From Piedraia hortae CBS 480.64 (taxonomy: Eukaryota): DNA of 64,000 nucleotides. The notes under the pieces are model-generated. The model was not told where the DNA came from. It saw nothing but the letters and a program-made list of their open reading frames with translations, and did not search any database. This document shows positions 6,652-50,665 of this stretch, piece by piece. Location: NCBI GenBank assembly GCA_010093745.1, contig MU005957.1:1-64000 (forward strand), read 5' to 3'. Positions within the stretch are counted from its first letter, which is position 1. Each line of letters starts with the position of its first letter. Both the position numbers and the translations under genes were made by a program.

Positions 6652-6696
6652 NNNNNNNNNNNNNNNNNNNNNNNNNNNNNNNNNNNNNNNNNNNNN
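6652..6696. other. Assembly gap (45 N)
   Basis: Run of N that hides the CDC45 stop codon. Confidence 1.
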
Positions 6697-31529: not shown

Positions 31530-31899
31530 CTGCCTGGGCCTACATTTATCGGCCTGAACTATAGCGGTGACGTTGTGAGTACGAGTAATGGATGGGCGGG
31601 TCTACGGTGCCACTCTGGGGCACGATGTCAAATACGACCTAGGGCAGAGACGCCACGCAAGGTGGCTACGCCGGCCTTAAATAGACCAGGCAAGGTAGCC
31701 CGAAGTAGATGCAGTCGAGCTGAAGCAATAGATCACAGTAAGAACGAGGGGGCATGACGTTGATGACTAGCCTCACCTGGGCCCCGGTCGCTTCTGGTTG
31801 GATGCCCCACCCCGACAGACAGGGACCGAAATTTGAACGGTCAGACATGCTTCTACGTACGAGCTAGCAAGACCCCATTCCACGCGATTCATAACCTGC

Positions 31900-32642
31900 T
31901 TATCTATAGCGCCACAGCGACAACGTGTTCTGTCGCTTCCACGTATGGCGACGTCCAGCACGAGTATGATTGTACCTGTGACCCTTGTTGAGACCGCGAC
32001 TCTTCTTGCCGATCGAAGTCAACCCACGCATCTCACGGTGCTTGTGCACAGGGTTGACGATCCAGTTGATGCGCGGGTCACGCCTAATGGCCTTATGCAT
32101 GGGGTCGACCAGGATGACTTCGAAGTACTTGTAGGTACTGTCCTGATTGATCCAGTACGAGTTCAGGACGCGAAGATTGGCGCAGCGGCGGCCAACGCGC
32201 TCCTCGGCCGTCGAGCGGAGCGATTTCTGGTACTTAAGCTGGTTGACTCCGTGATTCGTAGGCTTGCCGTACGTCGCACCCTTGGGAACGGGCCTCTTCC
32301 TTCCACCGCGACGAACACGGACACGGTAGATGACGTAGCCTTGCTTAGCCTTGTAACCCATGCGGCGGGCCTTGTCGGGGCGCGAGGGGCGCGAGGCGCG
32401 GTGGATCACGTTCAACTGACGGAGCTATATGATGTACTCTCAGCAAAGCGTTCAACGAGTACGATCAAGGCACAAGCAGATGCGTCTGGAACCTTGCCAG
32501 CATTTAGGCCAGCAGATCCAGCACATCGCCATATACCGCTCAGGTTTTGTCATACCTCCCAGCAACGAACACGCAGAAGAAAGCGCATAACATCGCTCTG
32601 CTTCTTCTTCTGAAGCTCTTCGAGATATTTGTGCGCACCCAT
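31900..32642 (-). CDS. RPL15: 60S ribosomal protein L15 (eL15)
   Basis: Exon 1 32642-32556 ([29 protein letters not shown]), intron 32555-32425, exon 2 '[27 protein letters not shown]...SLWRYR'. Probable 5'-UTR intron 32685-32643. Confidence 0.98.
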
Positions 32643-32908
32643 CTTGAAACGTCAGCTTTGTTTTCAGTCTGCATATGATGCTTACCTTGACTGTTGGCGC
32701 AGCGGCTGTTGGAAGTGGTGTTGAAGCGTGCGAGTGTGCGAGGAATTTGGGACTGCCAAGAGGCGGGGCGGCCCGGAGCTAAGTGCGGATTTACGTTTTT
32801 CCGAACGGCACAAAAGATGTGACAGCACGTCGACGGTCACGCCTATCGTGAATGTCACACTGGGTAAAATAACGATTGGTCTAAGATTCACACAGTACAG
32901 CCTATTGC

Positions 32909-33682
32909 CTACACACGAGTGAAGCGCAAATAGGGCTTCTCTTCCCGCACATTCCCAAACTTCTTCCGGGCATCCTCCGTTGTAACGGACGGTGGAACAA
33001 TGACATCCTCACCAGATTTCCAGTCAATAGGTGTTGCAATGCCTTTCTTGTCTGCCAGCTGCAAAGCATCGATGACACGGAGCACCTCGGCCGAGTTTCG
33101 GCCTGTACTCGCTGGGTAGATCATCATGAGACGAATCATCTTCTGTGGATCGATAATGAAGACGCTCCGAATGGTAAAAGCAATGCCTCCCTCTCGAGCC
33201 AGCCTTTCAACATCATCTTGCGAGATCATATCGTACAGCGAGGCAACTTTGCGGTCGGCATCCGCAATAATCGGGAATTGTAAGTTGGTGCGAGACAACT
33301 CATTGATGTCGTCAATCCATTTCTCATGAGAGCCAAGGTCATTGGCTGAAAGGCCCATCATCTTGACGCCACGCCTGTCAAACTCATCCTTCATGCGGGC
33401 AAAAGCCCCGAGTTCAGTCGTGCACACGGGGGTGAAATCTGCTGGGTGAGAGAAGAGAATCGCCCACTTGTCACCGATCCAGTTGTGAAAGTCAACGTCC
33501 CCATGAGTAGTCTTGGCTTTGAAGTTGGGAGCTACGGAACCAAGACGAAGACGGGGTTGCTCGGCCGCAGTGTTGATGCGACGCACAATGTTTGAGGTTG
33601 GCTTGAAGGCCTGGCGCGTATTGGCCACGGAGCGTGTGGAAACGCTTGATGCTACGCGAGCACTACGAACGAAAGAAGCCAT
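32909..33682 (-). CDS. PRX1: Mitochondrial 1-Cys peroxiredoxin
   Basis: 'FSHPADFTPVCTTELG' Prx6 motif and an Arg/Ser-rich presequence (MASFVRSARVASS...). Confidence 0.96.
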   Translation of the reverse strand: MASFVRSARVASSVSTRSVANTRQAFKPTSNIVRRINTAAEQPRLRLGSVAPNFKAKTTHGDVDFHNWIGDKWAILFSHPADFTPVCTTELGAFARMKDEFDRRGVKMMGLSANDLGSHEKWIDDINELSRTNLQFPIIADADRKVASLYDMISQDDVERLAREGGIAFTIRSVFIIDPQKMIRLMMIYPASTGRNSAEVLRVIDALQLADKKGIATPIDWKSGEDVIVPPSVTTEDARKKFGNVREEKPYLRFTRV

Positions 33683-33738
33683 GGCGTTGGTGTGTCTTGT
33701 GTCACAATTTTGTGACACACGGATGACACCTGCAACAT

Positions 33739-33763
33739 GATGACGTCATCGTCGGATCTACCC
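33739..33763. promoter_or_regulatory. CRE/ATF palindrome GATGACGTCATC plus CGGATCTACCC motif upstream of PRX1
   Basis: Perfect 12-bp palindrome at 33739-33750 and the motif at 33753-33763, ~60-80 bp upstream of the ATG. Confidence 0.55.
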
Positions 33764-33843
33764 GCTGAGTTTTAACGAGTGTGCAAGTGTAGCGCAGGGA
33801 TGTGCCAGCTTGAACATTAACATTAATTCATGCGTTCATACGT

Positions 33844-36375
33844 TTATAGGCTAAGTAGGCTTTGTTCCTTTGTTTGTTTTGGCCACGTCCAGTTGGTATA
33901 GTCCTCCGGATCCAGCCCCGTTTCGAATGCGTGATTCATCGATCGTGTGCGTCGGTTCAACAGCATCTCCCGTACAGCCGCACCTTTGTTGCCCAGCGTC
34001 TCAGACAGATTGTCGATGGCCAGCATTGCGATGCTGAAGCGGTCAATCTCATTGCGAATTGCGAGCACACCGGGTGTGTCCACGTTTCCGTGCTCCTTGT
34101 AGCCTCTGACGTGCATCTTTTCCTGACCCGCACGGCCATAAGTGAGTCTATGAATCAGCCAGGGGTAGGAGTGGAAGTTCATGACAACGGGCTTGTTCTT
34201 AGTGAAGATTTGAGCATATTCGTTAGCATCAAGCCCGTGCGGATGATATTGATGCGGTATGAGCTTGAAAAGGTCGACAACGTTGACGAAGCGGATCTTG
34301 AGCTGCGGTAGATGCTCGCGTAAGAGCGCGGTGGCAGCCAAGGATTCCTGCGTGGTCACATCTCCGCAACAAGCCATCACGAGATCTGGTTCCTCATTTG
34401 CATCGTTGGAGGCCCAGTCCCAAATGCCTATGCCTTTTTCGCAGTGAAGGGCGGCATCTTCCATGTTCAGGTACTGCAAGTGGGACTGCTTGTCAGCTAC
34501 GACAACATTGACGTAGTTGGAGGAGCGAAGGCAATGATCCATGACTGATAGCAGACAATTGCCATCTGGTGGCAAGTAGATGCGCACGACCTCGGGCGAT
34601 TTGTTGGCAATGACATCGAGAAAGCCGGGATCCTGATGAGTAAACCCATTGTGGTCTTGGCGCCAGACAGTGCTGGAAAGTAAAATGTTGAGCGAGGACA
34701 AGGTAGAGCGCCATGATACCTCATTGCACTTTTCAAGCCACTTGGCGTGTTGGTTGACCATGGAGGAGATGATGTGGACAAAGGACTTGTGGGATATCAG
34801 GTCAACATGTCAGAGAACTGCGGCTGTGAAACTTACCTCGTACGAGTTCAACATTCCATGTCGACCACTGAGAAGATAGCCTTCCAGCCAGCCTTCAACG
34901 TTGTGCTCAGAGAGCATTTCCATGACGCGACCTGCAGGGGCCAAGTTGCCGCCATCGTCATCCTCTGGCAGGTAACCATTTACCCAGACTTTTTTCGTTA
35001 CTTCATAGACGGTATCCAGTTTGTTGGAGGTTGTTTCATCAGGCCCCAGGAGACGAAAGTTGGTGGGATTATCCCGCATCACATCACGCAAAAAGCGAGC
35101 AAAATTTGCCATGCTGCCGTAATTCAAAGTTCCATGGGTGGACACATCAATTGCATAATCACGGAAATTCACCATCTTCAAGGGTTTCAATAGCTGTCCG
35201 CCATTAGTGATTGGATTGGCCGACATGCGTAGAGTGCCCTTGGGAGGAAGCTCTCTAAGCTCCGGGATGAGCTTGCCATCAGAATCAAAGAGCTCTTCGG
35301 GTTTATAGCTGCGCATCCATTTCTCTAGCATGTCCAATTGCTCAGGGTCTCCAACTGGATTGGTCAGCGGGACCTGATGGGCACGCCAAAATCCCTCCAC
35401 AAAATGTCCCTCAACCTTTCGCGGCGCAGTCCAGCCCTTGGCGGTACGAAGGATGATCATGGGCCAGTTGGGCCGGAATGGTTTCCTGGAATCACGAGCC
35501 TGTTTCTGGTAGGTGCGAATCTCCGTGACGCAGCGTTCAACAGTCGCAGCCATGGCCTGGTGCAGCTCGTCCAGATTGTGGCCCGAGACGATATAAGGCT
35601 TCCATCCGTAGCCCTGCATGAGCATGATGAGTTCCTTTTCAGGAATACGGGCTAAAACGGTTGGATTATTGATCTTGTAACCATTGAGATGCAGCACTGG
35701 AAGCACAGCCCCATCAGTAATGGGGTTGAGAAACTTGTTACTGTGCCAGCTCGTTGCTAACGGACCAGTCTCGCTCTCGCCATCACCGACAATGGTCAAG
35801 GCGATGGTGTTTGGGTGGTCAAAAACAGCACCAAAAGAGTGGGACAGGGAGTAGCCGAGCTCACCGCCTTCATGCAAGGATCCTGGGGCTTCAGGTGTCA
35901 TATGGGAACCGATGCCGCCGGGATAGGAGAATTGATGGAAGAACTTTTGCAAACCTTCGATATTTTCAGTCTTGTCAGGATAGACCTCGCTGTAAGTTCC
36001 CTCCAGGTAGAAGTTGCTCAAGAGCCCGGGAGCACCATGGCCAGGCCCACTGACAACGAACGCATCGAGATTATACTTCTTCACCATGCGGTTAAAGTGG
36101 ATATAGGTGAAGCTCTGTCCAGGATCACTGCCCCAGTGGCCAAGCAGACGAGGCTTGAGATGGTCTTTTTTGAGAGGCTCACGAAGCAAAGGGTTCTTCT
36201 TGAGGTAAATCATGCCAAGACAGATGTACATGGTAGCGTTGAAGTAGCGCGTCAGCTTGTTGCATTCTTCTTCACTGAGCGGTTCTTGATTAAGAGTGGC
36301 TTCTGTTTGGCGGTAAACAGACCACTTATCTTGGTCCTCCGTAAATGTCGAGGGGGGTTTTCCGGAATCGGCCAT
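33844..36375 (-). CDS. Xylulose-5-phosphate/fructose-6-phosphate phosphoketolase
   Basis: 'RLLGHWG', 'GPGHG', 'HEGGELGYSL', TPP motif 'GDGESETG..LHLNGYKI', 'E.LSEH..EGWLEGY.L.GRHG', 'WRQDHNGFTHQDPG'. A 51-nt intron 34836-34786 joins the two ORFs in frame. Confidence 0.97.
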
Positions 36376-37738
36376 GGTTGAAAGTCGACAACTTGTGAAG
36401 AGAGCGTGTAGAAGGGTCAAGGCTCAGTCGAGACGCTGGCTAAGGAATGATATATGCATGATGTAAGCAACAGTGCGTCATGTCGTTCCACCCACAGGTA
36501 GACCGACGTCATCAACTCGCGCATTGCACTATTATAACAGCTCATTATCTCTAGCTGACATGAAATGGAATGCCCAATGGCACGTTGATATATTACAGCT
36601 TTCCCGTGTCAAGACTCTCGAGTGCTTGTCAATGGCCAATGTCGTCCAATACAAGCTGTATCGCATGGGCTATCTTAATCCAATGCTGCACGTATTTACA
36701 GTGGTGGCTTCTCCTTAGAAGGCGGTTTACCAACGGAGCCACATCCAGATGGCTAAACTGAAGGAAGGCTGTTCATCAGCCTCGGCCTTCTAGTAAGGCG
36801 GTGGATTGAATCAAGCGATTTTACATAAGCAGGCAATTAGCGCCGATTATCAAACAAGCAGATGCATTGAGGCTTCCAGAAGATGTCATATGTTGGTAAG
36901 GATTGCCGGGCCTGTTTGGTGGGTTCGTGCTTGCCGGTGTCATGAATTGAGTGAAGTATGATGCTACATTAAGCAAGCTTTGCACCTTCAGGGACTGGAA
37001 AAGCAGTGAATTTGTGGAGGTATGACGGCTGCCAATTTGACATGTGTCCAGGCTATTTACGCTACAAGCTTGGAACGCCCAAGTGCAGGTATATGTGTAG
37101 CAATCTCGAAGTAACCCTGCCTGTCTCTCGCATTTGACATGTTACGCTAAACGAGGCACATGCGCGACCAAAGGATGGGGGCAGAGTCAGGGTTGCTGTC
37201 GCTAAGCTGGCTCGCATGGATCGAGGCGTTCGCCCGGTGAGCCGGGACGAGTCATGGCTTCAGACATCGTATAGGCTAGAATAGTTGGACATCCAGGGAG
37301 GTGATATGTCGACCCCTGTCACGCCAACCTGTCTTGGGTGGACAAGAAGGTTGAAACACTACCGACCGGTCGGCAGTCGTATTCGGGTTTCGGCCCCATC
37401 TGCAACCGTACGACATGGCTACCCACGACAAGGCCCGCGTGACTGGGGACAGGTAAACGCAGTGGCTCAACGTCACAACGGGTGAAGAATGACAAACGAC
37501 GCGTAAGGGACGCAACGGGCTCCAGGGAGATGCATGAATTACCCAATGAGAGGCTTCGGGATCGACGGTGGCTCACCCGCGCCTCGACCCCTGGGACAGA
37601 AGCGCTAAACATAGCCGAGCAACCGGCTAAAGATAATAACAACATTGGGAATCCGCTTGCACGCAGCTCGCGGATAACCTTGACTTGGCTGCACCCTTTG
37701 TCCCTCCAACCCACTCTCTCCACCCGCACATTCTTGCA

Positions 37739-39871
37739 ATGCCGCAAAAGAGCAGCTGGGTGCGCTGGTGGACAACTCGCGTAGTCGCACTCGCCCTGTT
37801 TTCTGCCAGCGCATGTTCATTTGAACTCACAAACGAGACGTCGCCCACGCATCAATTCAAATCGGTGCGTTGGCGCAACGCTACAGATGAGGCGCAAGGC
37901 TGACAGTCGCAGCGACCAGATCTTCATGCCCCCATAATACAATTTGACATTCTCAAACCAGAGCTTGTAACGCCTGGCTACCTCTTCCTAGCGCCCTACC
38001 GAAATCTCGACCCTGGACCATACATCTATGACAATGCGGGCGAGCTTGTGTGGTCGGGCGCAGGCGCCAGCGGTCCCAAAACGGCGCATACACCTCGCGT
38101 ATGCAGGTACCACAGCACAGACCACCTTTGCTTCTTCCAGGGAGAACAGCACCAGGGCTTTGCTCGAGGACATGGAGTCATCATGGACCAGAACTACCGC
38201 ATTGTGCGGACCGTTGAGAGCCTGGGCGCAGGTGCCAGTAGCGATATGCACGAGTTCAAAATTACCCCGTATTCGAACGGCACCACCGCACTCCTGACTG
38301 TTTACCAGCCTCGACAATACGATCTCTCCAAGAACCCGAGGTTCAACGTCCGAGGTGGGATGGGCTGGGTGGTTGAGGGCGTCTTTCAGGAGGTGGATAT
38401 CGATTCGGGCCGCCTCGTCTTTGAATGGCGGTCGCTGGACCACGTTGACCCCGGTCTCAGCTGGACTCTTCCGGGCACAACAGATACCAGTGGTGATGGT
38501 CTCACGGAACAGACTCCTTGGGACTACTTCCACCTGAATTCTATCGACAAAAATGTCGAGGGAGACTACCTTATTTCGGCGCGTCACGTCAGTGCCATTT
38601 ACAAAGTGTCAGGCAAGGACGGGCACATTATGTGGCAGATGGGCGGCAATGCGGCGACACTGAAAACCACAAACTTTGTGTTTTCTTACCAACATCATGC
38701 TCGTTGGATGTCCGAGAATGCAACCCATACCCTCTTGTCATTTTACGACAACGCTAGTAATACGTTCAACTCCAGTGACAAATTCTCCCACGGCTACATC
38801 GTTTCCATAGATCACGGTGCAGGCACAGCCACCATGATCAAGGGCTGGGGTGCGCCTGAACCCGAGGGAGGTCTCTTGTCGGGCTCACAGGGGAATATGC
38901 AGCTTCTCCCAAACGGCGGCTGCCATATAGGCTGGGGGGAGCACGCATACTTTAGTGAACACGCTGCCGATGGGACAACGGTGCAGTACGGCAAGTTGGC
39001 GCAAAGGGAATCCAACGTTATGATCTACCGATCCAACAAGTACAATTGGACCGCCCAGCCCCTTACGAAGCCAGCATTATGGACGTACAGTCGCAGCCAG
39101 CAACGCATGGCTGGGTGGGTGTCGTGGAACGGTGCTACCGAGGTTGCAAGCTGGCGTTTCTACAGAGCAGACACCGCTAACGGCCCTTGGAAACTAACCA
39201 GCGAGCACCCAAAGAATGGTTTCGAGACCGAGGTACAGTGGGAGGACGCAGCCCCCTGGACGTACGTCGTAGCGCTTGATCGTGAGGGAAAAATCCTGGA
39301 AAGCAGCGCTGCAGTCAGGACCTATGTGCCGAGCGAGGCAATGCGCGATAGCTGTGACGACCGTGGGTGCAACACATCTGAAGCGGTGGAAGAAGAGAAG
39401 AAAACGGCCTACGAGGACGGGTTCCAACCAGCACCCCAAGACCTGTCAACTCAGCGAGGATACAATACTGGCCATTACTTCATCGAACTTGTCAACGGAA
39501 CCATGGCAACCTTCCATCCGTCAGCAGCACATACTGGGCTCGATTCCCTCGGCGCACCCGATCCAGCCACGTACGCGCCTCCCAGACGCGTCAGCAGTTG
39601 GAAAGACACCATACCGCTGATCTTTGGCCTCTTAGGCGGCATTGTGGGCTCCATGCTTGGTTGTTTCTTTTACAACCGCGGCCGGCCACGCTTTGAGCCT
39701 TGGGCAGACTCGCTTGGCTCGGATGCATCCAAGCGTCTGGGCAAGTACATATCATTAAGGGAAAAGGATGATAGACTAGAGGCGGGGCGAACAGAAAGGC
39801 TAGGATCTGACGCTGGCGCAAGCTCCAGCGGAAGTCACATCGACATGTGCGATTATCGACACAAGCGGTAA
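37739..39871 (+). CDS. Arylsulfotransferase (ASST)-like protein 1 with signal peptide and C-terminal transmembrane helix
   Basis: Exon 1 37739-37864, intron 37865-37912, exon 2 in frame with ORF 38048. Motifs 'SRPDL', 'DMHEF', 'WDYFHLNSIDK', 'ISARH', 'YQHHAR', 'SQGNMQ.LPNG', 'VSWNGATEV', 'GFET'. TM segment 'IPLIFGLLGGIVGSMLGCFFY'. Confidence 0.9.
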
Positions 39872-40135
39872 GGATACCATTTAATTTGCATTGTACGGTA
39901 ACACGATGGCGTTTGGAGGTCAGGGAAAGGGTGCATAGAGCGGAATTGCGATGCTAGTTTCTATTTCAGCTCGTTCTGTGTCTGTATATACTGTATGTGT
40001 GTGTAAGGGGGTGTGTTTGTGCGCGTGCTTGGCAGTTTGGTTACCGCGCATTAGCCCGTGCGGCAAGTTCCGTCTCCACCTGTTTACAATTGGACGTTGG
40101 CGGCGTCTTCGTATGGACCCTAATCTCAGGAAGGC

Positions 40136-41902
40136 ATGGTGCATGACCGGCGAGATTCCCGCAATCTACGCAATCGCCACGGTTCGCTGGCATCACGGCC
40201 TGGAGATGAGGTCGGAGCCGAACTTCTCCCTACCGTAGAAGACGATGGCAATATGGAGTGCCTCCCGCCTCCCTCATCACCACCACCCCCTCCTCCGTTC
40301 ACAGTGACTCCAACATGGACCAATATGCCCGCTAAGGGGCAGCTGGCTATCCTTTGTCTCTCGCGTTTTGTGGATTTTTTCCAAATGGCAGCCATACAAA
40401 CGTTTATGGTGCACCAGCTTAGGAGCTTTGATCCGGAGCTCTCTGACGTGACCCTCTCGCACCAAGCAGGTGTGTTGCAGGGCGCCTTTACCGCTGCCCA
40501 GATAGTCACCAGCATACTCTGGGGTCGTGCAGCGGATAGGCCTACCGTTGGTCGGAAAACGGTGCTCATGGTTGGTCTTGCAGGGACCGGCCTGGGCTGC
40601 ATCGGAGTGGCATTCAGCAGTACGTTCAGTCAGGCTGTTTTCTGGCGGCTGGTCAGCGGAGCTGTTAATGGCACCGTGGGCGCCGCTCGTACAATGGTAG
40701 CAGAATGCACGCCTAAGCCTTGGCATGCACGAGCATTCCTCTTGCTCCCCGCCGCGTTCAACGTGGCTAATGTCTGTGGTCCCATCCTTGCAGGCCTCCT
40801 TGCTGACCCGGTGGAAAACCTTTCCACTCTATTTGGCCCGAACAGCACCTTTGGCGGCTCTTATGGAGTAAGGTGGATGCGTACATATCCCTATGCCTTG
40901 CCCAATCTTCTCAGTGCAGCTCTCCTTTTCCTTGAAACGGCATTGGTTCACCACGCACTCCGCGAAACTCTTCCTGGGAAAAGGCCTCTTAATCTTTCGC
41001 GTTTATGGAACACATCGCTCCTTCGCAGCAGGATATCCCAGGCAGAGGCAAGTCAGACCTTGTTGTCCGACACAGACCGCAACTCGATAGAACTTTCGTC
41101 TCTCGAGGACGGCCCTGGCACCCCGGTCGCCCAATCCCCAAGGTCTCCAGCTATCAGACCCGCAATCTCACGCCTACCCTTCACTCGCATCTGGACACCC
41201 AATGTGTGCTGGACACTGACCACCATCTCAATCTTTGACTTCCACATGGGCGCCTTTGCAAACCTCTGGATCTTATTCCTCGCCACACCCCGAATCTACG
41301 CTCCAACAGGAAAGGGCCGTGGTCCTTTTAAATTCTCATCCGGCCTTGCATTCCCCCCTCCCACTATCGGGTTTGCGATGGCCATTATAGGCTTCATCGG
41401 AGTAGCCCTCCAGTTCGCTCTCTACCCCCACGCAAACGCAAAATATGGGCTGATGAAGTGCTTCCGCGCATCGCTCTTTCTATTTCCAGTTGCTTATGCA
41501 CTCGCACCTTATATTGCATTATTACCCTCGGCATCCCCGCCGCCTGACCCCGCGAGTGGAGGTGCTGTATGGGCTGGCATTGGACTGGTGTTATTCCTTC
41601 AAGTCGCAGCGCGTACTTTTGCGCTTCCGGCTTCGATTATCCTACTGAACAACTCCTCGCCCCACCCTAGTGTACTTGCTACAGTGCATGGCCTGGGACA
41701 GGCTTGCTCTGCCTCATTCCGTACGCTAGGACCCATACTTGCAGGGTGGTGGTATGGCGTTTGGACAGAGAGAGGTGTAGTTGGCATGGCATGGTGGTTT
41801 GTTGCCATTATATCTGCCATAGGGTCTATCGTTGCTTTCAAAGTCCGCAACGGGACCGGCCACGAGATATTGCTCCCCGGGGAAGTCCGAGGGACGCCTT
41901 AG
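40136..41902 (+). CDS. MFS transporter (YCR023C/ZIFL-like branch)
   Basis: About 12 hydrophobic segments; motif A 'WGRAADRPTVGRK', 'R..SGAVNG.VG..RTMVAE', 'YPYALPNL', 'LATVHGLGQ..S...R..GP'. Confidence 0.92.
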   Translation: MVHDRRDSRNLRNRHGSLASRPGDEVGAELLPTVEDDGNMECLPPPSSPPPPPPFTVTPTWTNMPAKGQLAILCLSRFVDFFQMAAIQTFMVHQLRSFDPELSDVTLSHQAGVLQGAFTAAQIVTSILWGRAADRPTVGRKTVLMVGLAGTGLGCIGVAFSSTFSQAVFWRLVSGAVNGTVGAARTMVAECTPKPWHARAFLLLPAAFNVANVCGPILAGLLADPVENLSTLFGPNSTFGGSYGVRWMRTYPYALPNLLSAALLFLETALVHHALRETLPGKRPLNLSRLWNTSLLRSRISQAEASQTLLSDTDRNSIELSSLEDGPGTPVAQSPRSPAIRPAISRLPFTRIWTPNVCWTLTTISIFDFHMGAFANLWILFLATPRIYAPTGKGRGPFKFSSGLAFPPPTIGFAMAIIGFIGVALQFALYPHANAKYGLMKCFRASLFLFPVAYALAPYIALLPSASPPPDPASGGAVWAGIGLVLFLQVAARTFALPASIILLNNSSPHPSVLATVHGLGQACSASFRTLGPILAGWWYGVWTERGVVGMAWWFVAIISAIGSIVAFKVRNGTGHEILLPGEVRGTP

Positions 41903-42687
41903 ATTAGGGAGCCAGAGAGTCCTCCCGAATACTACGAGCTACGTGTAGAGTACATGTATCATCACATTTATCATCATCACCACCGGTAATGCAGCTTGTA
42001 TGGATAGCGCATGGGTTTATGTAATTCACATCATCTTTAAGAGGTTATACAACTTCGAAGATAGTGCAGTGTCATGTGTGTTGCATGCCTCGTATTGCCC
42101 GGCGGACTTCGGATGCCACTCGTCCCGATCATTGTGGCTACATACCGTGGCTTGAAAGGCACCGTAAACACCTGTCTTACGATATTTGCATGTGACTGGA
42201 CGCGCGTACAAGCAGAACACAAAGAGGGATGACTGACGATGTCCGAAGTCGGCTGGCAGGCATACGTTCTCCTGCGCATGTCCGCATCAGCCGAAAGCGC
42301 ATAGTGCTATCAGATGCGTCACTGATTACGCAAGGTGGGTAGACATGATGTGGCGGGGTGAGGTGGCGGTTTCCATGTGTTTAGCAGATGTCAAACAAAC
42401 GGCCGACTAGCTGGGGCTCGTGATGATTGCAAAGCCACAACCCCGGCTTGGTTTGCAGCCCCGCGCCCGAATCCAGGGGCAGCTTTGTAAGGAAATAAAG
42501 CGGCCGCGCGTCACTGGGCAGGCTGAATGATCGTCCTTGCGGGATCCCGACGAGCCGAACGCCACCAAAAAAAGACAAACATTGACGTGTGTGCACTTTG
42601 CCCGATTTCTGACCTTTGCACCCGCGTTCTGTCTTGAGGTGTCTACCGTTTCGTTGTTCAATGCCACCCCTAATCTGCTAATCACCC

Positions 42688-44577
42688 ATGCTTGCTTCGC
42701 TGCTTGTGTCATGTCTCCTCTCCCTAGCTCTTGCAAACCCTGTCCCCGGGTCTCCCCCTCATTACAACGCTGCTTTCGACAATGGCTCCTACGGGTACTA
42801 TCCTGTTAGATCCTATACAACTGATGATCTAATCTCTCCTCGAACTAATTTCCGACAATGGGATCCCCGATGCGACGACGGTCGCATGTACTTTATATCC
42901 CCGCGGGGGTGGAGCTTAAGTCTTCCCGGTCCCATGATTCTGGACTCACGCGGAGACTTGGTTTGGAGTCACCACTACGAGAACGAGTTTGGCGGCCAGG
43001 CTTACAATTTCATGGTGCAAGAGTACAAAGGAGAGAACTACCTGACATTCTGGCTGGGAGATGATCGAGTCAGAGGCCATGGTTCGGGGTCATATTACAT
43101 GCTCAACGCGTCGTATGATGTTGTGCATCGGGTTTCTGCTGCGAATGGTCTCACAGCTGACTTGCACGAGTTCCTCATCACTCCGGAAGGCACTGCGCTA
43201 ATGACCATGTACGAGATTGTTCCCTATGATGTCACTACTCTTCGAGAGTTCGCGCCGAACGAGGAGGACCCCAATTACATCTGGGACTGCCTCTTTCAAG
43301 AGATCCGGATCGGCACGGGCGAGTTGTTGTTCGAATGGCGGGCTAGTGAGCATGTCGACGTCACCGAGACGTATCACAACATTGGCGAAGGTGGGACAAA
43401 GTCGGATCCCTTTGACTGGTTCCATATCAACAGTGTCGAGAAAGATGCTCTCGGAAACTACCTAATCAGCGCTCGCTATACGCACAACGTCATGTACATT
43501 GACGGCCGCGATGGCCATCTTATCTGGCAGTTGGGCGGCAAGAACAATTACTTCATGGACATGAGCAACGGATATGGGCTCAACTTTGCTTGGCAACATC
43601 ATGCACAATTCGTGTCGCCACAAATCTTTCCAAACATGTACACGCCACCCGCCAAGGAACCAGGCGTGACTACGCAGCTGCTTTCGCTCTTTGATAATGC
43701 TGCCGAAGATAACAACTATGAATACGGTTTGACGTACTCGCGGGGTTTGTTGCTGGAGCTGACCTACCCTGATGATGCAAATTACACTGCCCTTGAAGAT
43801 TTGGCGCAGCAGTCAAGTTCGCAAATCAAAGGCAACTACTCTGATCCAGAGCTTAACATTGCCAAAATCCTAGCCATCAATGGCAGCGATCCGAATTACC
43901 AAGTACGGGTAATCCAGAGCTATGAGAATCCTGAGCGAGTACGTTCTTCGTCGCAAGGCTCCATGCAGCTGATCCCCCGAGACGGCCAGGACGCACAAGT
44001 TTTGGTTGGTTTCGGGCTAAACGCGGTGTGGACCGAATTTCAAGCGGATGGAAATGTACTGTGCGATGCGCATTTTGCAGCAGCAACCTCGTGGGAGAGG
44101 GGTGACGTATCGAGCTACCGTGTCTACAAATTCATATGGAAAGGGAAGCCACAGACGAAGCCACGGATGGAAATTAGCGACGACGAGGCAGAAGTGTACG
44201 TCAGCTGGAATGGGGCAACGGATGTGGCAGAATGGGTATTGCAGAGTGCAGATGCTGCCCCAACGTCGGAACGTTCATGGGCAGATGTCGCGCGTAAGCA
44301 CCGACAAGGCTTTGAAACAACCATTTCAATTCCCCGCGGGGGTGTCAGTCGAGCGCGCTTCCTACGCATGATTGCCCTCGGACGACAGGGCCAGAGACTT
44401 AATTACGGCAGCAGCGAAATAATTGACAGAAAGTCTTCACCGACAGAAGTCATGGGTCAGTTGCACGCACGTATAGAGCCTCTGGGCCCGGTACGGATGT
44501 TGTTCCTACTAGTTGCTATGAGCGGAGGCATCATTGTCGTCTGGAGTTTGTTCAGCATTTGTTGTGATTTGCGTTGA
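42688..44577 (+). CDS. Arylsulfotransferase (ASST)-like protein 2 with signal peptide and C-terminal transmembrane helix
   Basis: Signal 'MLASLLVSCLLSLALA'. Motifs 'GPMILD..G.LVW', 'DLHEF', 'FDWFHINSVEK', 'ISARY', 'WQHHAQ', 'SQGSMQ', 'YVSWNGAT.V', 'GFET'. Hydrophobic C-terminus. Confidence 0.92.
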   Translation: MLASLLVSCLLSLALANPVPGSPPHYNAAFDNGSYGYYPVRSYTTDDLISPRTNFRQWDPRCDDGRMYFISPRGWSLSLPGPMILDSRGDLVWSHHYENEFGGQAYNFMVQEYKGENYLTFWLGDDRVRGHGSGSYYMLNASYDVVHRVSAANGLTADLHEFLITPEGTALMTMYEIVPYDVTTLREFAPNEEDPNYIWDCLFQEIRIGTGELLFEWRASEHVDVTETYHNIGEGGTKSDPFDWFHINSVEKDALGNYLISARYTHNVMYIDGRDGHLIWQLGGKNNYFMDMSNGYGLNFAWQHHAQFVSPQIFPNMYTPPAKEPGVTTQLLSLFDNAAEDNNYEYGLTYSRGLLLELTYPDDANYTALEDLAQQSSSQIKGNYSDPELNIAKILAINGSDPNYQVRVIQSYENPERVRSSSQGSMQLIPRDGQDAQVLVGFGLNAVWTEFQADGNVLCDAHFAAATSWERGDVSSYRVYKFIWKGKPQTKPRMEISDDEAEVYVSWNGATDVAEWVLQSADAAPTSERSWADVARKHRQGFETTISIPRGGVSRARFLRMIALGRQGQRLNYGSSEIIDRKSSPTEVMGQLHARIEPLGPVRMLFLLVAMSGGIIVVWSLFSICCDLR

Positions 44578-45623
44578 AGCGATTCGTTTTCTGTCGACGA
44601 TGGCGGCATTTTGCGATGGAGTTTTGGGCGAGCAAAGGGCATAGCATTCGGGTTCATGTTTTCGATTAGAACTTGCTGCATCGGGGAGGTTTAGACGCTT
44701 CGTGATAAAGAGGTAGATACCCACAGGCAACTGATATTTCGCAAAAGGTGCGCCCCTGCTTCCCAACGATCTTAACGGGCGATGGCGGTGTACACACTCG
44801 CAACTTCTGGAAGGGCAAGCCATATTTGCATCCTCTTAAACTAGGCGAGAGGCATTTTGCTATATTGATCATCTGCTGTCCTCTGTGTTAAATGGCGGAG
44901 AAGCTGGACTTCCTTGATCCGGTACTCCTACCTTTTATCATATGTGATACGCACCGTTATCTCAAACCCAATCACGGCAATGGTACAGTACAATGGCATG
45001 TTGAATTATCAGGCCTGCGGATACTAACTCACTGAACCGAAGAAATCTGTTGGCATGAAGTCTCGTTGCTATTAGTGTACGATACCGCTGCGCAACGCCT
45101 CTTACACCAGCAGCTGCACCTTAGATTTCGTCCTCACCGAGGTTTCCCTCAGGGTCATGTCGCATGCGACATTGTGAATGCGCCCTGCTACTGTTTGAGG
45201 TAAGTCATTGAGTAAGACTGCATGCTGACGGTCTTACTGCATGTATGACCACTTGCTTACGGTCATACAATTGATGACTCCCAATATGAGGCTACGCACT
45301 GGCCTTCAGGCCCAGAGTATATTCTCTGATGTTCCCCTCGTAGGTCCACGTGTATTCACTTGTACACACACCTCTACTCTCCATCTATCGTTCTCACTCG
45401 CACCTACCATCTGATTCCAAATCTTCAAATATTCGAGACGCTGTGGAGACGCTGCTCCCTAGTGATGATAAGGATAACAGTGGGCGTGAGAGATGAGAGT
45501 GTTGTTTGATTCATTCCATTGCTACAGTGCCAGCTCCCATTTCCTACGCATTCCTACTTGGGCATGATGATGTGATAATATCACTGTTGACCTCGACGAA
45601 TATACTGTAGAAGAGATGAGGTT

Positions 45624-45870: not shown

Positions 45871-46029
45871 AGGTTGCCCGTCACTTTCACCTTACTGGGA
45901 TAGGTACCCACAGTCGATTAGTTCAATAAAAAAAGAAATTTGGACCCCCACTTCTTAATCCCACACACTCACAGCCACTGAAACGGCAGACCTTTTCTCC
46001 GTCCCTTCAAGCTCAGCGAGAGGCTAAGC

Positions 46030-47353
46030 CTGCAATAATCACCAACAGCATTGGCCAGGAAGCCAGGTTTTCTCGACCTATTACCCCTCATCTCCTACCA
46101 CATGTATTGACCTTTATGGATATCCACACCGTTCAGGCCTTCCAACTGGCCGTCAGCGGCCCTGGAATGTGGCTATATCTCAGCATCAAGCATTACTTCA
46201 GCAAAAGACTCTCTGTGGTGGATTATCTCGACAAAACCTTGGCAACGGCGTACAGCTACTCGAAACAATGTCGAAGTCGTATGTTTATCTTTCGGGGCCC
46301 AGATCCTTGGAGTATTTCGTCCCTGGAAGCAGTTCTGAGGACTCCGATTGGGACTTCTACGTGCCCCACAGCCCGGAGCATAAAGGAGAACTCATTCTGG
46401 CTTTACAAGGGCTTGGGGTCCATTGGCTTGGTCGAAAGGACGAAATTCTGGCGGTAGCCTTGGGCGAGGATGGAGGAACTATGAAGATCGAATATGAGAG
46501 CCTTGTATATCCTCGCAGAAACGGTTCTTTAAATTATATAACCCAGTTGACTGGACTACAATTCACATGGGCAGCCTCCGAGCTTGCTCGGGACTGCAAG
46601 GTGCTACTGTCTGTTGAGAAGATTGGCGACGAATTGTGGGTTAGCAAAAGTGACAGATGCGATTACTACAGCGGTCTCGACCTGTTTTATCTCCTTCGCG
46701 GGAGTCTTACGTATAGGAAGAAGACGATGCCTGTACAACTCATGATTGACAACCGTATTAACAAGGCGACGTACCGCGTACCGCTCAAATTGCACTCGAG
46801 CTGTGTGCAGAGTTTTATCGGCGCGCATTGCGCGTGCTATATGTACGATGAGCTGGCATCACGCTGCGAGTCATACGCATGGGTTGACCATGAGAATAAC
46901 GCCGACACAAAGCTTGAGCGGAGTGGTTTATTGCTAGGTTGGGTTCCAGACCCCGTTCAAAGCATGTATAAGAAACAATGGTACTTGGGGTGGTTCAAAT
47001 ATCGGACTGGTGGATACAAATGTGTCGAAGCGGAGGAAGCAGACAAAAGAGAACCAAGAAATTGTGGAGACGCCGCTTCCACCTGGGTGGAGTATCTAGA
47101 TCCCGTACCCAGTGCACCACAAAGTGTATTTTCTTACTACATCCGTGCAAACCAACAGCTAGCCTGGGATGATGAAAATTTGGTCAGGACAATCCAAACA
47201 AACCTAGACGGGCAGATCGATAAGCCGTTAGGCATACCAGAGTTAGATGAATGGCTCAAGAGGACGGACAGACGCGAAGCGGAGAGGTTACTAGACCACT
47301 ATGTGCCCATACGGCGAAACTTAAGCCCATGGTCGTATAGACAAATACACTAG
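46030..47353 (+). pseudogene. F-box-like + nucleotidyltransferase-like gene, tandem copy 1 (frameshifted)
   Basis: Paralogous to 47667-48994. The start codon is lost and there are 1-nt deletions near 46090 and 46235 relative to copy 2. It retains 'YLSGPRSLEYFVPGS...SDWDFYVP' and 'KYRTGGY'. Confidence 0.7.
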
Positions 47354-47666
47354 CACAAAAAAGTTTTTCCTTGCCCAAAGCAACCGTCATTTGTGGCGGT
47401 TTGTGCTGAAGTGTTCCTTTTCTGCCGGCCATGACGAAATTTTACAGTGGAGTTAGCGGCGAACAGAGGGCATAGCATTCAGCATCGTGAGCTTAATGCA
47501 TCGATGAATTTCGACGCATAGTGGTACAGAATTCGATGCCCAGAATTTCCACAAAAAGGGAAGGTGGGGCCCCACAAAAATTTCAACAGGCTTGGTCCCT
47601 GCAGATTCGCCCACAGCAGGCCTTCTCTCCATTCTTACAAATTTCAGCGAGAGGTACTTTGCCACG

Positions 47667-48994
47667 ATGAATCGTCTTCCACGTTCGCATTGCTCATCGA
47701 CAGGAACACTTAAGAAGCCGGACTTCCCTGATGTGTTACCCCTAGACCTTCTACCACATGTGTTGACTTTTATGGATATCCGGACCGTTCAGGCATTCAA
47801 AACGGCTATCAGTAACCGCGGTCTGCAGCGATACCACGGCATCATGCACTACTTCGACAAGAAAGTATCTGTGGTGGATTACCTGGATAAAAACTTTGGC
47901 AATGGCGTACGGCTTCTAGAAGCGATGTCGAAATCGTATGCTTTTCTTTCGGGTTCAACGATCGCTAGAGTAACTCTGTGCCGGGAAGTATCACAGAAGA
48001 TTCTGATTGGGACTTTTACGTTCCCAATGATCCGGAGCATACCGGAGCATTCATGATGGCTCTACAGAAGCTTGGGGTTTTATGGCGGAGCCATGAAGAG
48101 GAGATTATGGCGGTGGCTAGCGGTGAAGAGGGAGGTAGTATGCAACTTGAATATGATTGTCTCATATATCTTGACAAAAGCGGTTGTCTGGATAGGATAG
48201 CCCAGTGGCCTGGGCTACCCTTCGAATGGGCAGACCACGACCACGGTGTGCACGATGGCAAACCATGGTTGATTGAGAAGATTGACAACATACTGCTGAT
48301 AGACGAGTGTTATTCATACGCTCATTACAGCGAAGTCGACGTGTTTTACGTTATCCGCGGGACGATCACGCGCAGAGGGAGGACGATGCCTGTACATCTC
48401 ATGCGCGACGCTCGCCTTATCGAGGCAATGTTCTACGTACCGCTCAATTTTCACTTGAGTTGCGTTCAAAGTTTCCTAGGCCCGCACTGCGTTTGCCACA
48501 TGTATGGCGCGTTGGCATCACGCCGTGAATCTTACGCCTAGGTCAGCCTTAGAAAAAGACGTGATCCGGCACAGGACGAGATGAGAGGTCACTTGCTGAG
48601 CCGGAACCCAGGCCGCATTCAACTCATCCCGGGTAAAAGATGGTATGGATAATTAAAGTATCACGCCCGCGGATACAAAATTTTCATGCCGAGTATATCA
48701 TACTCAAAAAATGCTACGATGTGGAGACGCCGTTTCCACCTGGGTGGAGTACCCAGATGCCATACCCAATGCGCCACAGTGTATCCTCCTATTACATCCA
48801 GGCGAGTCCGTCTAACGGAATGGGACCGTTTCCCGCAGCCGAAGCATGTACAACGGAACCCACACAGACGATTCAAGAAGTCGGTGGGCACCACAGAGCT
48901 AGAAGAATGATTCAAGGTCTCGGACAATTGCGAAGCAGAGAGGTTTCTAAACCACTACGTGCCAGGCCTCATGTAGTCCATACAGACACACTAG
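47667..48994 (+). pseudogene. F-box-like + nucleotidyltransferase-like gene, tandem copy 2 (frameshifts and stops)
   Basis: 'DVLPLDLLPHVLTFMD' (F-box-like), then 'FLSGS' with extra bases near 47958 and 47973, and 'EDSDWDFYVP'. TAG at 48539 where copy 1 has TGG; homology continues to ~48994. Confidence 0.75.
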
Positions 48995-49061
48995 CACGAA
49001 TGAATCTTTCTCCCGAACAATCGTCACCTGATTAGCCGAACCTCTTCCTAAACCACACAAT

Positions 49062-49098
49062 CACAAACTTCCACAAACTTCCACAAACTTCCACAAAC
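49062..49098 (+). repeat. 10-bp tandem repeat (CACAAACTTC) x3.7 in the 5' leader
   Basis: Direct reading; ends 6 nt before ATG 49105. Confidence 0.9.
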
Positions 49099-49104
49099 CC
49101 AACA

Positions 49105-50256
49105 ATGAACGCCTACGAAAAGCAACGCGCCGAGCGCATCAAATCCAACCGCGAACTCCTCATCTCTCTAAACCTCGCGCCCGAACCTGAACCCGACGCG
49201 CCTAAACGCACCGCATCAACCACCAAACCCAAACTCAAACCAAAAGAAAAAGCGCAACCCCAACGCACCTCCGCGCGTCTCGCCACCACTGAGAAAATCA
49301 ACTACGCTGAGCGACCGCAAAAGCAGAAACGAAAATCATCCCCAAACAGCGGAACGACCACCGAGGAGAATGATGAAGAGGAGGGAGAGGGAGATGAAGT
49401 TCTAAAGCCGTCGCGCGCATCAGCAAGGCTTTCAAATACAGCGCGGCCGAAGTATAGAGGCCTCGCGCGGTTATCGACGGATAGTTCTGAGGATGTGATG
49501 AGAGAGAGGAAGAGGAAGAGGGGACGGGGGAGGGATTCTATTGATAAAGTCGACGATGGGGGGGAAGAGGTCGTGGGGGATGCCTCGCCTGGCTCGTCCC
49601 GCTCGCTCCCGCCCTCCCTCGCGTTGGCGTACAAGAATAATTGGTCCTGGATCGCAACTGCACCACCTCCCACACGAAGCGAATCTACCGCACAGTTTCA
49701 CTTTGAATCGCACCCGGAGTTCACGCCGAATAAATCCCCCAAGGAGATTCTCAGACAGGGCAGCTTTGGGGGTTCATTTTTCCGTCCCTTGACGCCCAGG
49801 TCTCTAGGCGGTAAGGTTACGATTTCGGATGATTGGATGGAGTTACCGACTTCGTGGACCGTGGGATTGGATGTGGAGAGGTATTTGACGAGCAGTGTAT
49901 ATGACCCCAGTGTGAATAGGTATGGGGTTGCGTGTGGACAGTCGATTGAGGAGTGGGAGGCTGCGGGGTGGATTAATGCTGAGTTTGATGTTAGGGGATG
50001 GTTTCAGTGGTATTGTCGTTTCTTTATGGGGAGGAGGTGTGAGGATGATGAGAGACAGGTTGGAAGGTGGGCTAGGTGTGTTGGACCGAGAGGGAGGTGG
50101 AGGAAGGCGTTGTTCAAGAAGTATGTGGAGAAGGGGGTAAGGGTTATTACGGATGAGGAGGGGGACGGGGAGGATGTTTCCCCTGTGATCCATCAGACGT
50201 GTCTTCATTGGGCGTTTGAGCCGAGACAGGAGGATTTGGATGAGTTATGGGGGTGA
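49105..50256 (+). CDS. Conserved hypothetical protein (basic N-terminus, Trp-rich C-terminal domain of unknown function)
   Basis: 383-aa ORF. Ordered C-terminal domain 'F.PNKSPKEIL.QGSFGG.FFR...CGQSIEEWE..GWI...RGWFQWYCRF..GRRC.DD.RQ..RW...SPVI.QT.LHWA'; NLS-like 'RERKRKRGR'. Confidence 0.85.
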   Translation: MNAYEKQRAERIKSNRELLISLNLAPEPEPDAPKRTASTTKPKLKPKEKAQPQRTSARLATTEKINYAERPQKQKRKSSPNSGTTTEENDEEEGEGDEVLKPSRASARLSNTARPKYRGLARLSTDSSEDVMRERKRKRGRGRDSIDKVDDGGEEVVGDASPGSSRSLPPSLALAYKNNWSWIATAPPPTRSESTAQFHFESHPEFTPNKSPKEILRQGSFGGSFFRPLTPRSLGGKVTISDDWMELPTSWTVGLDVERYLTSSVYDPSVNRYGVACGQSIEEWEAAGWINAEFDVRGWFQWYCRFFMGRRCEDDERQVGRWARCVGPRGRWRKALFKKYVEKGVRVITDEEGDGEDVSPVIHQTCLHWAFEPRQEDLDELWG

Positions 50257-50665
50257 GATGGGGGAAGGCTGCACTGTGGTGTTCTGAGGGATGGATGGGG
50301 TGGGATAGAACAGTAGCGTGTACGATTATGTATCTATTAAACCTGATGAAGGGAATTTTATTCTCAGTTGAAAGAAATTGAGACTTTAATTTTTTTCCGG
50401 TCGTATTAGTCTCTGGAATGTGCTGCTCCCTTTGCTTGCGTATGCACATCAATCGTATACTCCTAACTTCAATGCTCGTGCATGCGTCTCCGTCGCGGCT
50501 TCGGGTATCGTGGTGTGCTGCTTCTTGAAGCGGTAAATTATTGGACCCCTCTGCTAAGCCAATTGATCTTTTTTTTTCGAAATATCCTTGCAAGAGGCCG
50601 CCTCTTCTGCTGATGTTATTATTTATGTTCTTTGGTATGGATACTCCCGGTAAAATCAGATCACA

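Follow-up and report, generated by a model that had tools for sequence, protein, structure and literature searches.

The unit conserved in other Dothideomycetes related to Piedraia hortae CBS 480.64 is a sulfotransferase gene of the Sulfotransfer_4 family (PF17784), followed on the same strand by a gene for an arylsulfate sulfotransferase-like protein (ASST1) and a gene for a transporter of the major facilitator superfamily (MFS), and P. hortae, itself a Dothideomycete, retains the last two of these genes. They are encoded in a stretch of 64,000 nucleotides (nt), positions 1 to 64,000 of the forward strand of contig MU005957.1 (assembly GCA_010093745.1; 726,567 bp for the whole contig), which is referred to below as the window. 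Region 37739..44577 of the window holds three genes within ~6.8 kb, all on the + strand, namely ASST1, MFS and a second arylsulfate sulfotransferase-like gene, ASST2. An earlier reading of the letters without database searches (the sequence-only reading) had taken ASST-MFS-ASST as the unit. This view had to be given up, as only ASST1, and not ASST2, is stably linked to MFS. Our best reading of the conserved unit, to which we give about an even chance, is a two-step sulfate relay across a membrane, in which a Sulfotransfer_4 enzyme, the MFS transporter and the ectodomain of ASST1 would take part.

The linkage of ASST1 and MFS was followed both in named genomes and in metagenome contigs. In seven named Dothideomycete genomes, belonging to several orders, the two genes carry consecutive locus tags:

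Meristemomyces frigidus: ASST1 LTR08_006337, MFS LTR08_006336
Teratosphaeriaceae sp. CCFEE 6253: ASST1 LTR53_008829, MFS LTR53_008828
Saxophila tyrrhenica: ASST1 LTR77_000765, MFS LTR77_000766
Recurvomyces mirabilis: ASST1 LTR86_003187, MFS LTR86_003188
Elsinoe australis: ASST1 B9Z65_9208, MFS B9Z65_9209
Zalaria obscura: ASST1 M8818_001361, MFS M8818_001360
Bogoriella megaspora: ASST1 M1820_006298, MFS M1820_006299

The tags are two apart in Coniosporium apollinis (H2201_003881 and 003879). By a hand count, 37 of 119 ASST1 relatives outside the window lay on contigs of the same size as the contig of an MFS relative, which is an indirect indication (many of these contigs are 7-46 kb long). Furthermore, a metagenome collection was scanned with a 20-sequence MFS alignment, which yielded 28 loci, and the window proteins were then placed on these loci by tblastn. 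All 10 loci that extend at least 4 kb upstream (L002-L006, L011-L013, L022 and L024) carry an ASST1 orthologue (58-71% identity) in the same orientation as MFS and upstream of it, and the 3′ part of ASST1 was found in two shorter loci, L010 and L014, bringing the total to 12 of the 12 loci that could be judged. Since L002 is identical in sequence to L003, and L011 almost identical to L012, the 12 positive loci correspond to 10 lineages; the other pairs share at most 83% nucleotide identity, down to about 68%. The spacer between ASST1 and MFS measured about 0.8-2.5 kb in nine related loci, compared with 264 bp in the window.

The third gene of the unit was detected by tblastn as an intron-split Sulfotransfer_4 gene, upstream of ASST1 and on the same strand, in eight of the eight loci with at least 3 kb of sequence upstream of ASST1 (L003, L004, L005, L006, L011, L012, L013 and L024, representing seven lineages); the other four ASST1-bearing loci extend at most 1.2 kb upstream. 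A Pfam search of 27 flanking open reading frames (ORFs) from four loci identified a PF17784 ORF upstream of ASST1 in L011, L013 and L024, with E-values of 2e-61, 2.5e-42 and 4.8e-43, respectively. In addition, a deposited protein of Pleomassaria siparia (807 amino acids) contains PF17784 at 33-216 followed by PF14269, the Arylsulfotran_2 domain, at 273-558; in this model, two adjacent genes have probably been merged. By sequence, the Sulfotransfer_4 protein matched SgdX2 (8y9p, E 5.7e-25), the structures 9kf1/9kf2 (E 1.3e-24), of which 9kf1 is titled as the Streptomyces sulfotransferase Cpz8 of caprazamycin synthesis, and schistosome sulfotransferases (E about 1e-20). It has no signal peptide and has, in its C-terminal part, a conserved hydrophobic segment with basic residues on both sides, and its LGLGRTGT segment would, in our reading of the motif, be of the PAPS-binding kind (PAPS, 3′-phosphoadenosine 5′-phosphosulfate). 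No description of the three-gene block was found in the literature, with subscription journals and supplements outside the coverage of the search.

The genes on both sides of the block differ from locus to locus. That is, a HECT gene on one side and a peroxiredoxin gene on the other were found in L004 and L005, a HECT gene upstream and a HET-domain gene plus a glycoside hydrolase family 64 (GH64) glucanase gene downstream in L006, a C1 peptidase gene before and IBR, serine hydroxymethyltransferase (SHMT) and glutathione S-transferase (GST) genes after the block in L011, peroxiredoxin and Na/H exchanger genes before it in L013, and an HBS1-like GTPase gene after it in L024. The peroxiredoxin gene is located downstream of MFS in L004, L005, L008 and L015, and upstream in L013 and in the window. 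As the flanks vary while the three genes stay together, it can be argued that the block is kept by selection.

ASST2 does not share this linkage. No ASST2 orthologue was detected by tblastn in any of the six loci with at least 5 kb downstream of MFS, and all ASST2 matches in the 28 loci were the paralogous match, at 30-32%, on the ASST1 gene itself. In Saxophila tyrrhenica, ASST2 (LTR77_001030) lies 264 locus tags away from the ASST1-MFS pair, and in M. frigidus LTR08 it is on a different contig. The paralogues are close to each other in Fulvia fulva (CLAFUW4_05084 and 05087), Dothistroma septosporum (70386 and 70388) and M. frigidus LTR85 (011382 and 011389), and therefore the triad does exist in part of the order. 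The two proteins share 30% identity over 560 columns, and in a tree of 24 sequences (771 of 911 columns and all rows kept) they fall into separate clades with 100/100 support, each with orthologues from many genera. A recent tandem duplication was rejected for these two reasons, and ASST1 and ASST2 are, judged by identity and tree, ancient paralogues. ASST2 is not a fixed part of the module and probably uses the module's donor pool or one like it.

The gene models of the region are as follows, with motifs and topology as predicted from the translations (TM, transmembrane; Cpz4 is the Streptomyces relative described below):

37739..37864 and 37913..39871 (joined), + strand: ASST1, 694 amino acids
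37739..37864, + strand: ASST1 exon 1, 42 codons, with the start codon and an N-terminal signal-peptide-like segment, from the ORF and its translation
37865..37912, + strand: ASST1 intron, 48 nt, GTGCGT...CAG, with an in-frame stop, read from the sequence
37913..39871, + strand: ASST1 exon 2, Cpz4-like beta-propeller and C-terminal beta-sandwich at full-length residues about 43-512
C-terminal part of ASST1 exon 2: low-confidence linker, TM at 609-629 (nt 39611-39673; about 608-629 in the hydropathy scan), 65-residue cytosolic tail
38243-38257, + strand: ASST1 DMHEF, residues 153-157
38531-38542, + strand: ASST1 HLNS, residues 249-252
38573-38584, + strand: ASST1 ISAR, residues 263-266
38690-38698, + strand: ASST1 QHH, residues 302-304
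39746-39757, + strand: ASST1 tail motif YISL, residues 654-657
39872..40135, + strand: ASST1-MFS spacer, 264 bp
40136..41902, + strand: MFS transporter, DHA1-like, 588 amino acids
40520-40558, + strand: MFS motif-A-like segment WGRAADRPTVGRK
40769-40801, + strand: MFS GP-containing TM5 segment NVCGPILAGLL
41903..42687: MFS-ASST2 gap, 785 bp
42688..44577, + strand: ASST2, single exon, 629 amino acids, with signal peptide, Cpz4-like ectodomain and C-terminal TM
43159-43173, + strand: ASST2 DLHEF, residues 158-162
43423-43434, + strand: ASST2 HINS, residues 246-249
43465-43476, + strand: ASST2 ISAR, residues 260-263
43594-43602, + strand: ASST2 QHH, residues 303-305
44497-44565, + strand: ASST2 TM, residues 604-626 (about 598-628 in the hydropathy scan), followed by only 3 residues

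These models were compared with contigs of a sequencing run (X1) presumed to be RNA; this is a guess, the run having no record as RNA. All three genes are covered by X1 contigs, one of them spliced. One contig joins exon 1 of ASST1 to 37913 onward, skipping exactly the 48-nt GT..AG intron, and the same exon junction is found in the deposited partial protein P0241, which is 100% identical to the window. Another contig, at 38063-41970, runs without a joint through ASST1 exon 2, the spacer and the whole of MFS, and a third (42009-45168) covers ASST2, again without a joint. P0241 (labelled partial, 539 amino acids) lacks the first 28 residues and the last ~127 of our model, and therefore the public ASST1 model misses the signal peptide, the TM helix and the tail. 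The deposited MFS model P0121 (549 amino acids) begins at Met40, and the upstream start at 40136 is favoured by the consensus of 20 aligned orthologues. The deposited ASST2 model P0001 is identical to our reading of 42688..44577. A spliced X1 contig at window positions 36583-37863 was also observed to reach 1,156 nt upstream of the ASST1 start, over the entire interval toward a divergent phosphoketolase gene; this extension could correspond to a long 5′ leader, to overlapping divergent transcripts or to an assembly merge.

Both ASST proteins matched PF14269 in Pfam, with E-values of 7.4e-46 for ASST1 exon 2 and 1.4e-46 for ASST2 (157.3 and 159.7 bits against a curated cut-off of 27), and also PF05935 (E 1.8e-18 and 1.3e-11; 67.1 and 44.6 bits against a cut-off of 24.2). 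The closest solved structures by phmmer against the PDB were 9kf4/9kf6 (E 1.7e-59 for ASST1 and 3.2e-55 for ASST2), which the Foldseek listing titles as the Streptomyces sulfotransferase Cpz4 of caprazamycin synthesis and its reaction intermediate. Structure was modelled for ASST1 only, ASST2 being placed with Cpz4 by sequence. The AlphaFold (AF2) model of ASST1 exon 2 had a mean predicted local distance difference test (pLDDT) score of 75.7 and a predicted template-modelling score (pTM) of 0.70, and consisted, in exon 2 numbering, of a propeller and a C-terminal beta-sandwich up to ~470, a low-confidence linker at 496-563, a helix at 566-588 and a mostly disordered tail. In Foldseek it matched Cpz4 (9kf4) with E 3.4e-43, a target template-modelling score of 0.88 and 33% identity, and the Escherichia coli ASST entries with E 1e-10 to 9e-9 and scores of 0.47-0.48. 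Likewise, a profile of 24 fungal sequences matched 9kf4 at E 2.5e-106 and E. coli AssT (3elq) at E 0.0042.

In E. coli AssT, His436 is transiently sulfated and the active site comprises His252, His356, Asn358, Arg374 and Thr501, according to the text consulted of PMC13426309. The profile alignment placed His356-x-Asn358 on the fungal HxNS motif, Arg374 on the arginine of ISAR, and the sulfo-histidine His436 on the first histidine of QHH, that is, His303 in ASST1 and His304 in ASST2; the register is fixed by the H436N mutant chain 4p04, which shows Asn in the His436 column. HxNS, [IVF]S[AS]R and QH[HD] were kept in 24 of the 24 aligned fungal sequences and DxHE[FL] in 23, the remaining one being gapped there; the histidine of DxHEF is common to Cpz4, in which the motif reads DLHDM. 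Given the homology and the residues kept, both proteins appear to have what an ASST needs. ASST1 and ASST2 are thus predicted to be ASST-type beta-propeller proteins, and we infer that both ectodomains would be PAPS-independent sulfotransferases acting via a sulfo-histidine (ping-pong) mechanism. ASST1 belongs to a large family, for which a full HMMER scan with this protein retrieved 6,658 representative clusters at E<=0.001, with 1,136 of them at E<=1e-30.

With regard to topology, an N-terminal signal-like segment and one C-terminal TM helix were found in all 24 aligned sequences. The N-terminus of ASST1 consists of basic residues followed by VVALALFSASA and reads as a signal peptide by eye, and ASST2 has an N-terminal hydrophobic stretch at 1-20. 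Four cysteines (C64, C73, C481 and C486, exon 2 numbering) are invariant in 35 ASST1 orthologues. Both proteins should therefore have a type I membrane layout, as predicted from these segments, with the catalytic domain facing the lumen or the cell exterior, where one would not expect PAPS. Tyr-x-x-hydrophobic motifs in cytosolic tails sort type I membrane proteins between the cell surface, endosomes and the Golgi. Such a motif, followed by acidic residues, is present in the tail of 31 of the 35 ASST1 orthologues, 26-42 residues after the TM helix in 30 of them and 6 residues after it in the short-tailed P0294. The ASST2 orthologues carry their own YRLL near the C-terminus, and both clades look like actively sorted membrane proteins. 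Ten ASST2 orthologues have a cytosolic tail of 14-33 residues after the TM helix (29-30 residues in six of the ten), with the pattern YRRYL...GPLRW...YRLLGD in seven, whereas the ASST2 of the window has only 3 residues. The missing tail is not encoded in any of the three downstream frames, nor is there an intron there in the X1 contig, and P. hortae ASST2 has apparently lost its sorting tail. A glycosylphosphatidylinositol (GPI) anchor was considered for ASST2 instead of a TM helix, as the hydrophobic stretch ends 3 residues from the C-terminus, and was set aside because the orthologues have the same TM segment followed by the 14-33 residue tail.

The sequence-only reading described the individual genes correctly. 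Its coordinates, strand and gaps of 264 and 785 bp agree with the gene models, all four motifs (DxHEF, HxNS, ISAR and QHH) are present in each enzyme, the last three of them lining up with catalytic His, Asn and Arg residues of E. coli AssT, and the enzymes that it called divergent are so at 30% identity. Profile hidden Markov models, which it suggested for the enzymes, recognized PF14269 and PF05935 above the curated cut-offs in both of them and MFS_1 in the transporter. The signal peptide and C-terminal TM helix it saw in both are borne out by the hydropathy scan and the reading by eye, and luminal or cell-surface enzymes are what the predicted type I layout would give.

The transporter, of the drug/H+-antiporter-like (DHA1) type, matched MFS_1 in Pfam with E 3.8e-21 (75.8 bits against a cut-off of 33.4), and its orthologues are 53-69% identical across Dothideomycetes. 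The closest solved relatives of the MFS profile were the exporter NorA (E 3.8e-7) and the organic-anion carrier MFSD10 (E 3e-4), and its structural neighbours in Atlas were all MFS clusters. Residues G130, R131, D134, G139, R140, K141 and P216 are invariant in 20 sequences; the two segments listed above may correspond to antiporter motif A and motif C (GP in TM5). The orthologues bear only generic labels, e.g. 'multidrug transporter mfsB', and a literature search on mfsB / AFUA_1G15490 found nothing on substrate or neighbours.

In the relay that we consider the best reading, the cytosolic Sulfotransfer_4 enzyme would sulfate a small phenolic carrier from PAPS, the MFS transporter would move the resulting anionic aryl sulfate across the plasma membrane or the membrane of a secretory or endosomal compartment, and the tethered ectodomain of ASST1 would take the sulfuryl group onto His303 and hand it on to an acceptor outside the cytosol, which, by analogy with Cpz4, may be a phenolic, a glycan or a hydroxyl group of a glycoconjugate. 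All of this biochemistry, including which way the transporter works and what serves as donor and as acceptor, is inferred. The MFS transporter enters as the third partner because ASST1 and the Cpz8-like enzyme are predicted to lie on opposite sides of the membrane, and its proposed role as a donor or product carrier gains support from the kept ASST1-MFS linkage. The synteny check that had been suggested for MFS and the ASSTs came out positive for ASST1 (12 of 12 loci and the seven named genomes) and negative for ASST2 (0 of 6 loci). As the conserved unit includes a PF17784 sulfotransferase, the term 'PAPS-independent', which the sequence-only reading applied to the whole system, fits the ASST step only, the system in the relatives probably starting from PAPS. 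A broader proposal, which we hold more tentatively and regard as somewhat doubtful, is that Dothideomycetes, and possibly other fungi, sulfate outside the cytosol without PAPS crossing the membrane, using a Cpz8-like loader, a dedicated MFS transporter and a Cpz4-like ecto-unloader acting onto cell-wall, secreted or host-derived acceptors.

A different explanation, that there is no coupling at all, appears rather unlikely to us. The ASSTs would then be stand-alone surface or secretory enzymes acting on environmental aryl sulfates (phenolic detoxification, sulfate-ester re-use), MFS a general efflux pump, and their proximity inherited microsynteny. This would fit the generic labels of the MFS orthologues, the HECT and peroxiredoxin genes that also stay nearby in several loci, a window that manages without an adjacent Sulfotransfer_4 gene, and the promiscuity of bacterial ASSTs with simple aryl sulfates noted in the part of PMC13426309 consulted. 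However, the order and strand of ASST1 and MFS were the same in every judgeable locus (10 lineages) while both flanks changed, named genomes from several orders likewise have the two genes side by side, and the third neighbour encodes the kind of sulfotransferase by which ASST donors are made in Streptomyces. That ASST1, MFS and ASST2 form one dedicated module, with both enzymes depending on the transporter, is suggested by the three genes on one strand within 6.8 kb, all covered by X1 contigs, and by the paralogues lying a few tags apart in F. fulva, D. septosporum and M. frigidus LTR85. We regard it as improbable in view of the absence of ASST2 downstream of MFS in all six informative loci, its distant or separate location in S. 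tyrrhenica and M. frigidus LTR08, the old split between the paralogues (30% identity, clades at 100/100) and the window ASST2 being without the cytosolic tail conserved in its orthologues.

Most improbable, in our estimation, is that the ASST fold was kept without sulfate transfer in vivo, the proteins serving as surface sensors or receptors or in the transfer of another group. The stalk, TM and sorting-motif layout would also suit a receptor, literature searches found no measured activity for fungal members, and a possible hint comes from Cryptococcus CNJ01160 (BWC3, with an arylsulfotransferase domain), whose mutants lose light sensing and which is listed under 'light sensing defect' in a table of PMC3744442. 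On the other hand, all 24 fungal sequences keep each of the tested residues with which E. coli AssT binds or carries the sulfuryl group, which is unexpected for a non-catalytic scaffold, and the conserved neighbour is itself a sulfotransferase.

Several observations weigh against the relay, some of them for P. hortae in particular. No Sulfotransfer_4 gene was found in the 64-kb window by tblastn with three such proteins at E<=1e-3 (the best match, 0.46 at E<=50, is noise), nor was a remnant detected at E<=50 upstream of ASST1, where the relatives carry the gene. This place is occupied in the window by a phosphoketolase gene on the opposite strand, and a rearrangement breakpoint is therefore suggested there; no phosphoketolase gene is seen in any of the 28 loci. 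The Sulfotransfer_4 gene of P. hortae has either been lost or moved elsewhere, and the relay in this fungus may be incomplete or work differently. For the Sulfotransfer_4 protein, the structure model was poor (pLDDT 45) and gave no Foldseek match at E<=0.001, so that the homology to Cpz8 is by sequence alone. No polyketide synthase (PKS) domain that could indicate a maker of the carrier like the type III PKS Cpz6 was present in the window ORFs or in the 27 ORFs (at least 150 amino acids) of the four related loci.

Other points concern the enzymes and the linkage. The TM calls come from Kyte-Doolittle hydropathy, and the signal peptides were read by eye. The alignment to E. coli AssT spans residues 354-517 only; the equivalent of His252 lies outside it, and there was no clear match for Thr501. 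The literature, within the same coverage as above, yielded no biochemical description of a fungal ASST-type enzyme. The remaining 16 of the 28 loci, with 0-2.5 kb upstream of MFS, were too short to judge, and in the two borderline loci among them, L018 (2.3 kb) and L023 (2.5 kb), no ASST1 was seen by tblastn. HECT and peroxiredoxin genes, too, turn up repeatedly close to the block in some loci, in an order and orientation differing from those in the window (27717-36423); selection on the block is for this reason not proven, and the linkage could in part reflect the microsynteny ordinarily seen between related fungi. Lastly, the X1 contig spanning ASST1 and MFS indicates that the spacer is represented in the run and is no proof of a single transcript or of co-regulation.

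The closest known counterpart is the caprazamycin system of Streptomyces sp. MK730-62F2, in which, as described in the part of PMC4257720 consulted, the PAPS-dependent Cpz8 sulfates triketide pyrones to give phenolic sulfate esters, which then serve the PAPS-independent Cpz4 as donors; Cpz4 prefers a sugar hydroxyl (PMC13426309, in part). ASST1 and ASST2 are full-length homologues of Cpz4 (9kf4/9kf6), with propeller and beta-sandwich, and the gene adjoining ASST1 in the related fungal loci encodes a homologue of Cpz8 (9kf1/9kf2) at E 1.3e-24. By analogy, the logic would be alike: a PAPS-dependent enzyme makes a phenolic sulfate that the ASST uses as donor. Unlike Cpz4, however, the fungal ASSTs also have a signal peptide and, beyond a stalk, a TM helix with a cytosolic sorting tail, and the Cpz8-like partner in the fungi is without a signal peptide and has a C-terminal hydrophobic segment. 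Neither a type III PKS (Cpz6) nor an antibiotic cluster was seen nearby in the ORFs scanned, and the window lacks the Cpz8-like gene present in 8 of 8 judgeable related loci. E. coli CFT073 AssT (3elq, 3ets, 3ett and 4p04-4p07; PF05935) is likewise an extracytoplasmic beta-propeller with His356, Asn358, Arg374 and His436 in common with the fungal ASSTs. It is a distant relative, though (profile E 0.0042, 16% identity, template-modelling score 0.47), the fungal proteins match PF14269 better than PF05935, and AssT is soluble, periplasmic and DsbL/DsbI-dependent, whereas the fungal proteins are predicted to be membrane-anchored.

Sulfation in the animal Golgi relies on a PAPS transporter and lumenal PAPS-dependent sulfotransferases. 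The outcome would be the same as in the proposed relay, i.e. sulfate esters on the non-cytosolic side with a transporter supplying activated sulfate, but in the fungi a small aryl sulfate rather than PAPS would cross the membrane, through an MFS rather than a nucleotide-sugar-type transporter, and the acceptor would be served by an ASST propeller rather than a P-loop enzyme. Moreover, Aspergillus oryzae LdrG and LdrH are PF17784 proteins located on lipid droplets with a role in lipid-droplet biogenesis, as stated in the part consulted of bioRxiv 10.1101/2022.11.24.517872, which says nothing of a connection with ASST or MFS genes. The conserved neighbour of ASST1 is a member of this Pfam family as well, a likeness by family only, and the location of LdrG and LdrH on the cytosolic face of a lipid surface would fit its C-terminal hydrophobic segment.

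The genes surrounding the locus in P. hortae are housekeeping genes, with CDC45, GRASP, INCENP, an SPB4-type helicase, OPT, pentafunctional AROM, HECT ligase, peroxiredoxin and phosphoketolase on one side and thiolase, kinesin, PSP1 and an aminotransferase on the other. No PKS or nonribosomal peptide synthetase (NRPS) domain was found by Pfam among 28 large window ORFs (at least 110 amino acids; intron-rich genes could be missed), in line with the earlier statement that this is not a classical secondary-metabolite cluster. The phosphoketolase frame (window 33844-36423, minus strand) is interrupted by a single in-frame stop (34810-34812), with an ORF of this frame on either side; the Pfam XFP matches of the two ORFs abut (profile positions 3-91 and 87-177), and the stop most likely lies in a short intron, as read from these matches. 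A run of 45 N is present at 6652-6696 inside the CDC45 reading frame. Downstream of ASST2, in region 45930-51892, the long ORFs at 46028-47350, 49036-50253 and 50669-51892 (minus strand) had no Pfam match even at E<=1, and among seven unassigned ORFs around the locus the only match at E<=1 was a weak one to Fn3_arc (E 0.23).

For sulfation to take place outside the cytosol, PAPS normally has to be brought into the secretory pathway. If the relay is true, a conserved PAPS-type sulfotransferase together with an anchored ASST and an MFS transporter would be another sulfation route for fungi; in a survey of fungal PF00685 proteins, Ascomycota seem to be without the carbohydrate sulfotransferases of that family (PMC11677658, in the part consulted). 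The Cpz8/Cpz4 pair of Streptomyces would then become an instance of a wider principle and, on the broader proposal, the fungi would possess the two-step sulfation of actinomycetes in a eukaryotic form that spans a membrane. ASST enzymes are sought as cofactor-free sulfation catalysts (PMC13426309, in part), and a large untapped eukaryotic branch of the family would be of practical interest. For the fungi themselves, the broader proposal would mean an unrecognised route to sulfated surface glycans or phenolics, including melanin precursors in black fungi, and it points to unknown sulfated surface products in melanised, stress-tolerant, plant- or hair-colonising species.

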